This document shows, one piece after another, positions 9,150 through 19,972 of a stretch of 63,767 bases of DNA. The notes beneath the pieces were generated by a model. That model had not been told where the DNA came from and searched no databases. It was given only the letters and a program-made list of their open reading frames with translations. Positions within the stretch are counted from its first letter, which is position 1. Each line of letters starts with the position of its first letter. This DNA comes from Candidatus Firestoneibacteriota bacterium (GTDB taxonomy: Bacteria > Oederibacteriota > D2-FULL-39-29 > JBBTED01). Made by a program: the position numbers and the translations under genes. The stretch lies in NCBI GenBank assembly GCA_038042445.1, contig JBBTED010000095.1:1-63767 (forward strand), read 5' to 3'.

Positions 9150-11192
9150 TTATTTACTATTTAACTTATCAGGTTTTTGAGGTATTGTCACTGCTGTTTT
9201 TTTACTGGCAAGTGTATATTTGAAATCAAAAATTCTATCTATGGTATTCTTTTTTTCATTTTTATATGTGAGCAATATAGGCACTATGTATCTATTGCCA
9301 GCATTTAAACGTGCTTTAGTAATTTTAAGATTAAATACTACTGAAATAGGGTTAGTAGCTGATTTTAACTTATCAATGCAAATTTTTAAATCACTCAAAT
9401 TCTCCAGATTATTGACATTAAGCATACTTATATTTATATTGGAAATATCATATATACTAATATTTTTTAATGTTACTGTTGCCTTAAAACTTTCATCAAA
9501 ATAAACAGAATTTGGAACATCTAATATAACATCTAACGGTAATGCTCCAGTTTTTGCTTTTAATTTTGAGAATGATGTGCCTCCAATTATCATCCATTCC
9601 ATCATAGAATACGGACCTCTACTACCATATATTCCTCTTCCTAAATCATGCCAAAACAAACCAATGTTTTTATTGTTTTCATAAAATGTATTCATTGCTA
9701 ACATAAGCCTGTCAAATACTTCCATAGGACCTGGCGGATTAATAGTTTTCTGATGTAATGTCCAATCCAAACATTCACCTAACACAAAAGCACTCTTTCC
9801 GTTTTCTGTATATTTTTTCCAATCCCCAATCATATTATTGTATGTTGGCCTATCACAATGATATAACATAATTGAATTAATCGAAATTCCTGCATCTATA
9901 AACATTACTGGATCCTGGCCGTGTTCTTTTCCCTGACGCCAACCAAGAGTAAAAACCCAAACAGGCTTAGAAACTTTTGCTTTATCCAAAATTTCTTTAA
10001 CAGTCTCAGCCATTTTATGTGCACGCCACCAATACCATCTCTCTTCTATAACCCAGTCTTTGTGCAGTTGGACCCTATATCCTACCCATTTTACTTTTGA
10101 TTCAAATGTCATCTTATCCCATTCAGATGGTAACTTTATAGTCATATCCTTAACAAATTCATCTACAAATTCATATCCACCAAATCCCATTCTAAGATAA
10201 TCCAAACCTATATAATCAACATTTGGATTTTTATCAAATAATTGCATTAATTTTATTATATCCTCTTTACGCCTTTCATCAGATATAGAGGCAAACTTTG
10301 CAGTTTCTACTGTATTAGTCTTAGGATTGTAAACTGTAGTAAATTTATATGGAGCTTTTTTTGCATCTTTACCTAAAATTACATAAGAAATAATCCAGCA
10401 TCCATATTTTATTCCCTCTTTATGAGCAAGTACCCCGATTTTATCCATCATATTAATATGTGAAACATCCCATGGAAATCTGGATTTTTTTATTTCACCA
10501 TCAATATATGTATGTCCCACAAGCTGCCAAAAAGCATCTGCACCTAAAAATTTAGTCCATTCTATTGTGTTTTCCCATCCTTTTTTACCTGTTTCGGGAT
10601 GTGGAATTTTTGCATAAATACCAGGTGTGCCTTCAAGCGTCAACACAGAAAATCCTTTAGGCAAAGATAATGCAGTTTTACCAATTATTTCAAAATCAAC
10701 CCGTGATGTAAAAATCTGTGGAATAACGGGCGAATTACTATTCGCCTTTTGATTAGTTCGATTTTTTTCTAAAGAAAGCACTTCAAGAGCAGCAACTACA
10801 TAATATTTACCAAGTTTAGATGTATATGGAATTGGCCATTTGCCAAACCATATATTTTTTTCTGAACTATATTTTAAATATAATGCTTTTAAATTTCCAA
10901 TAGATTCTACAAATTCATCTTTTGCAACTATTGTACTTCCAGTATTCCCTTCGGTCACAGCTTTTTTTTCTTCATTGGTCTGATTTTTAGAAAGATAAAA
11001 TTTACAATATACTTTTGCATTTTTACAATCATCTTTTTTAAAACCATCAGAAGAAACAGTAACTTCCACCATTTCATATCTATAATATTTTTCTTTATTG
11101 GTAAAAACCTTGATGTCTTTGGCAAAGACATAATCAAATGAACTTCCGAGGAATAAAACAAAAAATAATTGGAACAGAATTTTATTCTTCAC
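9150..11192 (-). CDS. Large exported hypothetical protein, possibly a glycoside-hydrolase-like barrel with Ig-like ends
   Basis: Probable GTG start at 11192 followed by a signal-like hydrophobic stretch; VDYIGLDYLR motif resembles GH-like barrels; function uncertain. Confidence 0.55.
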   Translation of the reverse strand: MKNKILFQLFFVLFLGSSFDYVFAKDIKVFTNKEKYYRYEMVEVTVSSDGFKKDDCKNAKVYCKFYLSKNQTNEEKKAVTEGNTGSTIVAKDEFVESIGNLKALYLKYSSEKNIWFGKWPIPYTSKLGKYYVVAALEVLSLEKNRTNQKANSNSPVIPQIFTSRVDFEIIGKTALSLPKGFSVLTLEGTPGIYAKIPHPETGKKGWENTIEWTKFLGADAFWQLVGHTYIDGEIKKSRFPWDVSHINMMDKIGVLAHKEGIKYGCWIISYVILGKDAKKAPYKFTTVYNPKTNTVETAKFASISDERRKEDIIKLMQLFDKNPNVDYIGLDYLRMGFGGYEFVDEFVKDMTIKLPSEWDKMTFESKVKWVGYRVQLHKDWVIEERWYWWRAHKMAETVKEILDKAKVSKPVWVFTLGWRQGKEHGQDPVMFIDAGISINSIMLYHCDRPTYNNMIGDWKKYTENGKSAFVLGECLDWTLHQKTINPPGPMEVFDRLMLAMNTFYENNKNIGLFWHDLGRGIYGSRGPYSMMEWMIIGGTSFSKLKAKTGALPLDVILDVPNSVYFDESFKATVTLKNISIYDISNINISMLNVNNLENLSDLKICIDKLKSATNPISVVFNLKITKARLNAGNRYIVPILLTYKNEKKNTIDRIFDFKYTLASKKTAVTIPQKPDKLNSK

Positions 11193-16738: not shown

Positions 16739-16851
16739 ATTTATCCTCTCTTGTTATTTGTTATAATTTTATAGAAACAAAAAACCCCTTATCTCTAATT
16801 TAAATTTTCACTAACTATATTATTAAAAATAGGTCAGACATCCTGCCTGAC

Positions 16852-17022
16852 AGCGGGCGATGGGGCTTTTTCTCCCCCACTAACTTTCGTTAGCTCCACC
16901 GAAACCTGCCACCCTCTCTTTCGGTGCTCACCATCTCGCACCGATGTCTAAACTCGTCGCCACTTATTCGTGGCGACAGACATTCTCGCTTCGCTCGGCG
17001 TTCGGGTTGGCTTCAAGCCCCT
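16852..17022 (-). ncRNA. Candidate structured RNA or tRNA-linked element downstream of tRNA-Gly, ending in a copy of the tRNA 3' end
   Basis: GC-rich with several nested hairpins and a closing stem GGGGCTT/AAGCCCC; 13-bp exact repeat of the tRNA 3' end. Confidence 0.55.
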
Positions 17023-17036
17023 ACATAAATTTTAAA

Positions 17037-17108
<72 letters not shown>

Positions 17109-17290
17109 ACTTTATTTTAATATTAACATTTATAAATAATTTTGTAAATATTTTTTATAAATATTCTTCCAACACTGATGCTTCAATTTCTTTAATTTTT
17201 TTAAATTCTTCTCATTAATTACAAAAGATGAAACTCACTAAGAATTAAATATTGTATCCATGGAATTTCTACTTTAAGTATAGCAAAATT

Positions 17291-18333: not shown

Positions 18334-18846
18334 TCATTGTAAAAAACCTATTTTCTTTTTTGGTGGTTTTGGTATTTCTGGTGGTCTCATCAATTGACGA
18401 ATTGCTTCGAAAACAATACTAAATTGTTTATCATATTTCTTTTCCATTTCTTCTATTTTCCTCTGTAATTCTTTATGAGTAGAAAGTATCTGCCTCAATT
18501 TCACAAAAGCTCTCATAATTTGAATATTTACAAGTATAGCTCTTTTGCTATTTAATACACTGGAAAGCATCGCCACACCTTGTTCTGTAAAAACATAGGG
18601 CTTAGCACCACCAAAATATGACTTAGATGGTATGCCAAAATGACACACCATTGCTTCAATTTCTTTACTATTAAGAACAAACATAAAATCTTCAGGAAAC
18701 CTTTCTATATTCCTTTTGACTTGTCTTTTTAATTGAGATGTTTCCACTTCATAAAGTTCTGCCAAATCTCTATCCAACATAACTTTCAAACCTCTTATCA
18801 AATAAATCTTTTTTTCTATTCTTTCCTTTGGAATTAAATTTAGCAT
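18334..18846 (-). CDS. ORF6N (KilA-N-like) DNA-binding protein
   Basis: [50 protein letters not shown]. Confidence 0.92.
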
Positions 18847-18961
18847 TATTTTACTCCCTTCTTAACTCATCGTTATAATTAAATTTTAACTCAAACTAAT
18901 GTTGTTAGCAAGAAAGTTATAATAATAAAACTTATTATTATTTTCTACCATTCCTCTTATT

Positions 18962-19972
18962 CTATTTATTCTCTAATTTTCTTTCCTCAACCCTATCTTT
19001 CAAAAGTGTCGTAGTTAATTCTGAACCTTTTAGTATCCCACGCGAATATTTAATCGGATATAAATATTCTGATAAACTATTATATAATTTGTACTCATGC
19101 TTGTCTGGATACGCAACTAATCTTTTTACTTTTTCTTGTACTTTCATGCAATCGTTGTCAATTATTTCAATTATAGAATTATTCATTTCCTCTTTCATTC
19201 CAAAATGATATAAAGCATATTTAAGAAAAATATCCTCATCTCGTAAAGAACAGCCTATAATAGACAATTGGTCAGCATTTTTTAATTTTTCTATTGCTTC
19301 TCTCCACAATAGCATTATTCCATTATTATATATCTTCAGGTAACTCATAATTATAATATGTGCACCTTTATCAGTTATAGAATTTCTACCATTCATATCA
19401 GCATAAATTTTAGGAAATATCTTGTTATTCACTTCAACAAATGGATATTCACCACCTTTGTCTCTAAAATTACAAGATCCGTGTAATTTAAATAATATAA
19501 TATTATCTAAATCAGAATTCTTTTTATCTCCTTCAGATGGAAAAGGAGTAAAGCTATATCCATCATTAGGATACCATCTGTTATTCAAATACAGATATTT
19601 ATCTAATATGCAATCATAATTTGTTGTTAATACACATGCATTTTTCGGTACTTTTTTAACAAAATCTACACACAATTGATAATTATTCTGAAATTTATCT
19701 ATGTCATAAAGACTTGCAATTATTTCATTAACATTTTCTATAAATTTACCGAGTTTTTCCTTCTTTTCATCATTATTTTCAGTTCTTATTTTTATTTCTG
19801 TCGAAGTTATGAATAATTCAATATCATGCATTTTTTTATAATCCTCTTCTACTTCTGGAATAATAATATCTTTTAATTTAGGCATTATATCATTAGTTAA
19901 TAAAGCTTCACCATTTGTAATAGCATGTGTAAATCCAGCCCCTAATAAAAAACATTGATTATTCATTTTCAT
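18962..19972 (-). CDS. SIR2-like (SIR2_2) domain protein, putative NADase
   Basis: LLGAGF, LTTNYD, FKLHGS, IIGCSLRDED. Confidence 0.8.
   Translation of the reverse strand: MKMNNQCFLLGAGFTHAITNGEALLTNDIMPKLKDIIIPEVEEDYKKMHDIELFITSTEIKIRTENNDEKKEKLGKFIENVNEIIASLYDIDKFQNNYQLCVDFVKKVPKNACVLTTNYDCILDKYLYLNNRWYPNDGYSFTPFPSEGDKKNSDLDNIILFKLHGSCNFRDKGGEYPFVEVNNKIFPKIYADMNGRNSITDKGAHIIIMSYLKIYNNGIMLLWREAIEKLKNADQLSIIGCSLRDEDIFLKYALYHFGMKEEMNNSIIEIIDNDCMKVQEKVKRLVAYPDKHEYKLYNSLSEYLYPIKYSRGILKGSELTTTLLKDRVEERKLENK

Follow-up and report, generated by a model that had tools for sequence, protein, structure and literature searches.

The sequence directly behind the tRNA-Gly(GCC) gene is one copy of a real, gene-less repeat that trails several tRNA genes. 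Positions 16852-17036 of the window (the whole stretch of 63,767 nucleotides that was analysed), read on the minus strand, probably represent a single unit of the tRNA-linked repeat (TLR) type: a gene-less, GC-rich and folded segment placed between two copies of the 3' part of the tRNA and forming part of a tRNA-trailer RNA. Comparison of its copies shows that the module is gene-less and present many times over, keeps a single-strand fold on the tRNA strand, takes both of its ends from the local tRNA and turns over between direct repeats.

The tRNA-Gly(GCC) gene is the sole tRNA gene called in the window by ARAGORN and Rfam, and its position on the minus strand places the element, running from 17036 down to 16852, downstream of it. 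The T-loop and 3' end of this tRNA are the source of both element ends. The G+C content of the element is 53-57% in 100-nt windows against 31.9% for the genome. The element itself was called neither tRNA nor tmRNA by ARAGORN or Rfam, which call the tRNA-Gly alone, and it matches no known Rfam family at E values up to 10. The spacer separating tRNA and arm measures 14-16 nt at other loci of the same genome, and the consensus scan located neither a promoter-like nor a terminator-like site between tRNA-Gly(GCC) and the unit. Immediately upstream of the tRNA, one ORF6N/Rha-like gene and one with a SIR2_2 domain occupy 18334-19972 (minus strand); the pair may constitute a small defence or phage-derived islet. 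Read in the direction of the tRNA, the features of the locus are:

17120..17148, minus strand: promoter-like TTTACA-17-TAATAT with extended TG, upstream of the tRNA (consensus scan only).
17037..17108, minus strand: tRNA-Gly(GCC), no encoded CCA (ARAGORN; Rfam tRNA model, 73.2 bits).
17022..17036, minus strand: AT-rich spacer of 15 nt from the tRNA 3' end to the 5' arm (sequence).
17012..17021, minus strand: 5' arm GGGGCTTGAA, reverse complement of tRNA T54-C63 with one A-to-G change; its GGGGCTT is the 5' strand of helix P1.
17004..17011, minus strand: 5' strand of P2, GCCA-A-CCC; helix 2 is 100% paired in nine sequences, with three pairs changed on both sides.
16984..16998, minus strand: P3 hairpin CCGAGC-GAA-GCGAGA with tandem G·A/A·G, the tandem G·A being present in 21/23 distinct copies.
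16921..16983, minus strand: 63-nt insertion with two hairpins between P3 and the P2 3' strand, not in the other 10 copies of the genome.
16908..16914, minus strand: 3' strand of P2, GGGTGGC (sequence and nine-sequence alignment).
16879..16894, minus strand: P4 hairpin GCTAAC-GAAA-GTTAGT; 5/6 pairs changed on both sides in the 9-row and 23-row alignments.
16852..16868, minus strand: distal copy of the tRNA 3' end, AAGCCCCATCGCCCGCT, its last 13 nt identical to the tRNA; its AAGCCCC is the 3' strand of P1.
16823..16851, minus strand: terminator-like hairpin GTCAGGCAGGATGTCTGAC (16833-16851) and T run, abutting the distal copy (consensus match only).

The pairings originally picked out from the sequence were all recovered. 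On the forward strand GGGGCTT (16862-16868) closes with AAGCCCC (17015-17021), the stem GTCGCCAC (16956-16963)/GTGGCGAC (16970-16977) lies inside ATGTCT (16944-16949)/AGACAT (16978-16983), TCGGTGC (16921-16927) pairs by sequence with GCACCGA (16938-16944), and CTAAC-GAAA-GTTAG forms a hairpin on the tRNA strand. The proposed repeat of the tRNA 3' end (16852-16864 = 17037-17049) is identical at 13/13 positions and at 16/17 when extended, and the inverted T-arm suspected at the element start is indeed there, the arm being the reverse complement of tRNA TTCAAGTCCC apart from the A-to-G change. The GTCGCCAC/GTGGCGAC and TCGGTGC/GCACCGA stems fall within the 63-nt insert and are specific to the window copy. 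P3, the motif that varies least within the family, also occurs in E. coli RtT, and P4 is itself a tandem G·A hairpin in some copies. The distal copy of the window reads GCCCC as opposed to GTCCC in the tRNA, and the arm reads GGGGC as opposed to GGGAC in the other Gly copy; these two substitutions, T-to-C in the former and A-to-G in the latter, compensate each other within P1.

The terminator-like hairpin at 16833-16851 belongs to a separate family of REP-like hairpins (GTCAGGCAAGATGCCTGAC followed by CTATT) that has about 50 loci genome-wide. Copies of this family flank a 152-aa IS200-like (Y1_Tnp) ORF at G000 C59:5177-5930, probably a RAYT, and in three places the REP-like hairpin abuts a tRNA-Gly-type 3' end in ...CGCT.

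A nine-sequence alignment defines four helices, with P1 formed by the arm and the distal copy, P2 by GCCA-A-CCC and GGGTGGC, P3 by CCGAGC-loop-GCGAGG and P4 located before the distal copy. Paired cells make up 86.9% of this alignment, compared with 31-40% in slid controls, and in 11 of the 27 pairs both bases have changed (3.7 on average after shuffling, none of 500 shuffles being as high). A larger alignment of 26 copies from the phylum (23 distinct), fitted to the model and hence favouring its structure, has 18/26 pairs changed on both sides (1/500 shuffles as high), pairing of 84% against 30-42% in slid controls and a covariation score of 0.335 against 0.129 (0/500 shuffles as high). P1 is paired in 100% of cells in the nine sequences and in 96% in the 23. 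Covariation among the homologues downstream of tRNA genes, evaluated by shuffle tests on both sets, thus supports the fold. Folded as a single sequence, the tRNA-sense strand reaches z = -3.03 (3/200 shuffles as good) and the antisense strand z = -5.15 (0/200); since both strands beat their shuffles, energy alone does not select between them, and the counts of G·U and A·C display no strand bias (10 vs 8 cells). The tandem G·A of P3, found also in P4 of several copies, would correspond to C·T mismatches on the opposite strand, and constitutes the main sequence evidence marking the tRNA-sense strand as the one that presumably folds.

Eleven copies were found in the genome by BLAST and the covariance model R1, distributed over six tRNA loci and one detached copy, and every copy examined applies the same logic of arm and 3' copy to a different tRNA, which excludes chance. 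The units lie behind 6 of the 43 tRNA genes called by ARAGORN (Gly-GCC, Gly-CCC, Pro-GGG, His, Ser-GGA and Ser-CGA), always on the tRNA strand, with 1 to about 2.5 units per locus: two at Gly-CCC, 1.5 at Pro-GGG plus the detached unit on contig C92, two at His, one at Ser-GGA, and two plus the start of a third at Ser-CGA. Each unit is composed of a spacer, the arm, a core of ~95 nt and the copy of the tRNA 3' end. The core is 78-93% identical across loci. The arm is the reverse complement of the host T-loop and the first three 3' bases of the T-stem and follows the host tRNA, being GGGACTTGAA for Gly, Pro and His and GGGGTTCGAA and GGGATTCGAA for the two Ser genes, and the distal copy spans the tRNA from T-loop position 56-58 to its last base.

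Several of these loci display further peculiarities. Behind tRNA-Pro(GGG) the second unit is cut off (G000 C7:7184-7500), and the stretch of at least 85 nt that follows it recurs inverted, with 91% identity, before the detached unit (C92:19877-20010); between the two inverted stretches lie CBASS-type genes (Cap15, CD-NTase-like) and a TaqI-like fragment, an arrangement suggestive either of an array that contains a defence islet or of an assembly that broke at inverted repeats. At G000 C59:746-4802 an 816-aa PriCT-domain primase-like gene is accompanied by a 356-aa tyrosine integrase gene ending 31 nt before tRNA-Gly(CCC); within the contig no second copy of the tRNA-Gly(CCC) 3' end was found upstream of the integrase, the other end of the island lying beyond the contig start. 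An orphan unit tail, GAAAAAAATCCCCACCCGCT, is located beside a REP hairpin at G000 C4:10226-10245 (minus strand), with no tRNA nearby, and an arm-only remnant, ATAGAGGGATTGAA, with no core, stands behind tRNA-Ser(TGA) on C14 (downstream of the tRNA at 10383).

The source genome is without a close relative in the collection, the nearest belonging to the same class. Of the 99 genomes available for the phylum, R1 detects the family in 9 and the broader model R2 in 23, with up to 12 copies per genome and none in the 31 genomes of the largest family. In the R1 scan all 13 matches outside the source genome lie directly behind a tRNA and keep the arm and 3'-copy rule. Among 15 further loci, 13 are situated 11-72 nt behind a tRNA, with an exact 9-nt arm in 12/13 and an exact 20-21-nt 3' copy in 13/13, and the other two have no tRNA within 260 nt. 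Host tRNAs in the phylum comprise Gly, Pro, His, Ser, Gln, Met, Thr, Leu, Asn, Arg and Glu.

Arm complementarity always starts from T54 and the arm GAA is invariant in 26/26 aligned copies. The distal copy begins at position 56-58 and often extends into the downstream flank; its exact length is mostly 20-71 nt, with a few shorter copies of 8-16 nt. These boundaries were measured over 25 rows, of which C59_1, C59_2, C76_2, G083b1 and G083b2, where a false T-loop had been picked, and the detached C92 row, without an adjacent tRNA, were read by eye. A scan of 185,579 species genomes with a family-consensus pattern gave 33 loci, none near a tRNA; all are in GC-rich genomes, and they were therefore discarded as chance matches. 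Tandem arrangements of a real tRNA with tRNA-like pseudogenes were observed upstream of tRNA-Gly(TCC) (L074, G081:C1), of tRNA-Ser(GCT) (L068, G083:C70) and of tRNA-Ser(TGA) (L072, G015). GC-rich inserts with many CGAGC/GCGAG words are present in their D-, anticodon and T-loops, the one in the T-loop resembling the core, and these pseudogenes may be intermediates or relatives of the units.

Filled and empty alleles, the latter among the checks proposed in the original prediction, were found in three genomes of one genus (G017, G091 and G092). The tRNA-Thr site is bare in G017 and G091 and carries a unit in G092, where it is bounded by a 42-nt direct repeat extending from T-loop A58 to 21 nt past the CCA. 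At tRNA-Met, G017 is empty and G091 and G092 are filled, while at tRNA-Leu a full unit is present in G092 and G017 retains the terminator and a degenerate arm, GGGGAATTAAC, only. A filled allele exceeds its empty counterpart by exactly one unit, flanked by direct repeats whose start lies in the T-loop. The DNA thus gains and loses units, a pattern equally compatible with insertion and with loss through recombination of the repeats. A separate repeat of ~370 nt occurs in dozens of copies per genome in genus g11, many of them in G017 and G091, and in G092 it is inserted directly behind the tRNA-Leu unit (L077 about 1090-1460, G092:C18).

The original prediction offered two identities for the element, a co-transcribed ncRNA and a mini-element targeting tRNA T-arms. 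The multi-copy family is compatible with both, and the kind of element is not new, as its layout is that of the E. coli TLRs. The second identity would make the unit a non-autonomous integrative mini-element (a CIME or bare attP), a circle of ~125-170 bp inserted through T-loop crossover by tyrosine integrases acting in trans, with arm and core serving as DNA bound by recombinase or accessory proteins, and is considered unlikely. It would accommodate the direct repeats, which invariably start at T-loop nt 56-58 and end variably after 20-71 exact nt in the manner of an att identity block, as well as the one-unit difference between alleles and the tandem arrays, and it draws further support from the PriCT-type primase and tyrosine integrase genes near tRNA-Gly(CCC), which has two units, and from the defence island within the tRNA-Pro array. 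However, loss by repeat recombination yields identical empty alleles, and a single core at tRNAs of at least 11 amino-acid kinds would require many integrase specificities. The integrase gene itself is present at one of the six loci, on the 5' side of the tRNA, and at neither the window copy nor four other loci; the ORFs scanned on either side of the window copy (about 11.9-23.8 kb) include neither a tyrosine nor a serine recombinase gene. If arm and core were bound as double-stranded DNA, strand-specific tandem G·A pairs and compensation within P2 and P4 would be unexpected as well, and the E. coli TLRs are also found behind 5S rRNA genes according to PMC8144298.

Re-pairing of the element with the pre-tRNA had also been suggested, and would turn the unit into a cis-acting switch in which the arm pairs with the T-loop and the distal copy acts as an alternative acceptor strand, controlling folding or 3' maturation of the tRNA. 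The pairings themselves are those of the most stable structure predicted for the tRNA together with the unit (-112.5 kcal/mol, z = -4.47), which joins the 5' acceptor strand to the distal copy and the T-loop to the arm, and the arm, complementary from T54 and with GAA in every aligned copy, includes the complement of the TTC missing from the distal copy. The fold is, however, a single thermodynamic prediction and kinetically unlikely, as transcription reaches the unit only after the tRNA, which should by then have folded; moreover, the arm of the window copy has changed to match the distal copy rather than the tRNA, terminators or long hairpins separate tRNA and unit in relatives, and 37 of the 43 tRNA genes have no unit. 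A switch of this type is therefore highly unlikely. Barely credible is a passive, unselected attL/attR scar of a large deleted island, the alternative named in the original prediction, for although a partial direct repeat of a tRNA 3' end is the classic mark of a scar, and orphan 3' tails and arm-only remnants exist (C4, C14, G017), it is contradicted and excluded by the covariation, with a core conserved over 23 genomes, compensatory changes in three helices and an arm adapted to the host tRNA at every locus.

The preferred reading, a TLR-type unit within the tRNA trailer, would proceed as follows. Pairing of the arm with the distal copy would form P1, the helix closing the conserved core made up of P2, the tandem-G·A P3 and P4, with the acceptor 3' strand left as a single-stranded tail. 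Consensus matches suggest that the unit is transcribed from the tRNA promoter as a 3' trailer and that transcription ends at the hairpin right behind it; in some relatives (G092c) a strong terminator lies between tRNA and unit, and co-transcription there needs read-through. A search of RNA runs returned one soil metatranscriptome with 4% of the words, whose sequences match the tRNA alone, at 85-99% likeness, and stem from other organisms. As the distal end replicates the tRNA 3' end, release by the same 3'-end enzymes is possible, and by analogy with the E. coli rrnB unit RrB the unit may be set free as a discrete RNA. In relatives, recombination between direct repeats would explain how units are gained, lost and multiplied, and a similar turnover may operate in the source genome. 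Arm complementarity would be maintained by selection for P1, as the window copy suggests. Slow compensation alone can hardly explain exact arms at tRNAs of 11 amino-acid kinds, and the arm may also be corrected by template switching against the T-arm of the tRNA itself, a mechanism known from quasipalindrome mutation, which would explain the arm GAA opposite the TTC that the distal copy lacks.

A much broader proposal, which must be regarded as doubtful, is that TLR modules form an ancient pan-bacterial class and that each of them, on settling behind a stable-RNA gene, acquires the T-arm and 3' end of that gene in inverted as well as direct copy through an undescribed single-strand, hairpin-templated DNA transaction. 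Their RNA would then be a tRNA minihelix mimic, with a large domain replacing the T-loop, that acts on the tRNA 3'-end machinery, and the pseudogenes of G081 and G083 would be intermediates.

The same TLR design is encountered in a distant, AT-rich phylum. To what was known of the class the present analysis adds the junction rules, the empty-site alleles, the rejected link to Y1 transposases, the tRNA-like pseudogenes with core-like loop inserts and the tandem-G·A hairpin common to these units and E. coli, to which a protein could bind. Strong covariation of the core, natural filled and empty alleles and precise junctions (arm from T54, copy from nt 56-58) make the family usable for studying the class. 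Should its distribution prove as wide as it seems, the trailers of tRNA genes harbour an overlooked structured RNA or mobile module, and annotation and att-site prediction currently misread the units as island scars.

Four known systems invite comparison. A T-loop class of integrase crossover sites was reportedly described by Williams in 2002, and like tRNA-integrated islands and CIMEs the units directly repeat the 3' part of the tRNA from the T-loop onwards, accrete in tandem and occur as filled and empty alleles. In contrast to those elements, they have no integrase and no cargo, possess a conserved single-strand fold and use one core at many tRNAs. Integron attC sites in gene-less cassettes pair an inverse core with a core in a folded single strand, with units in tandem behind a primary site, but both ends of the present units are derived from the neighbouring tRNA and follow no fixed consensus. 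REP/RAYT and IS200/IS605-derived elements are likewise small, gene-less, hairpin-rich intergenic repeats. The Y1/HUH transposase domain PF01797 occurs in 70 of the 99 genomes and is missing from five carriers of the unit. A link to this transposase was rejected, as none is present in G081 (10 units) and G083 (12 units), the relatives richest in copies, and in family f11 21/31 genomes have Y1 and 0/31 the unit.

The closest system is that of the E. coli TLRs, which comprises the 178-bp tyrT-tyrV repeats (RtT, rttR, RF00391), repeats in other tRNA operons and rrA, rrB and rrF behind rRNA operons. TLRs have been known since 1978 (Egan and Landy, via PMC8144298), and a literature search for them outside E. 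coli returned nothing beyond PMC8144298 and an editorial in which the term 'tRNA-linked repeats' appears. PMC8144298, which cites Egan and Landy 1978, Rudd 1999 and Bösl and Kersten 1991 and 1994, lists 22 E. coli TLRs, spread over ten loci that each have one to five of them, and describes them as without known function. [quoted passage not shown] According to the same paper, RrA/B/F arise from terminator read-through, undergo processing and can bind Hfq as well as CsrA in vitro; conservation in Enterobacteriales is reported there for rrA/B/F only.

The Rfam RtT model (RF00391) matches four E. coli tyrT units at 133-138 bits, whereas neither the window nor the genome as a whole contains anything that it recognises at E values of 10 or less (gathering cut-off 45 bits), so that formal sequence membership of RF00391 fails. 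Tested on E. coli, R1 reaches E values of about 0.07-0.5 at the tyrT locus, its best matches lying on the wrong strand, and R2 finds the Ser units at E = 0.0048 and the tyrT units at about 0.2 on the right strand and in register, weak scores that stem in part from common tRNA-Ser 3' ends. Further differences are the distant phylum and AT-rich genome, an arm that here covers T54-C63 (the T-loop and three stem bases) and in E. coli the T-stem and acceptor, and the absence here of a direct T-stem 5' strand plus TTCGA segment and of a small ORF like tpr. None of the units seen here stands behind an rRNA gene, as some of the E. coli TLRs do.

The architecture, in contrast, is closely matched. As in E. 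coli, the units lie directly downstream of a tRNA on the same strand, in tandem and at several loci, and terminate by repeating the end of the gene before them (13 exact nt, 16/17, in the window). In both systems the 5' arm closes the fold with the 3' copy and varies with the tRNA, the E. coli arm being GAGGAT for Pro and GGGGGGAT for Ser at other TLR loci. In the RtT consensus GGGGAAGGAU of the 5' arm pairs with AUCCUUCCCC of the tRNA 3' copy, leaving CACCACCA free, and P1 likewise leaves the last acceptor bases and CCA unpaired. Inside, the CGAGCG..GCGAG hairpin of RtT corresponds to the CGAGC-loop-GCGAG hairpin with tandem G·A. In E. coli a variable hairpin comes after it, where the window copy has its 63-nt insert, and a second GCGAGCGAAGCGAG hairpin occupies the position of P4 just before the 3' copy. 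With arm, 3' copy, closing helix and CGAGC hairpin in common, the layout of these units is thus the same as that of the E. coli TLRs.
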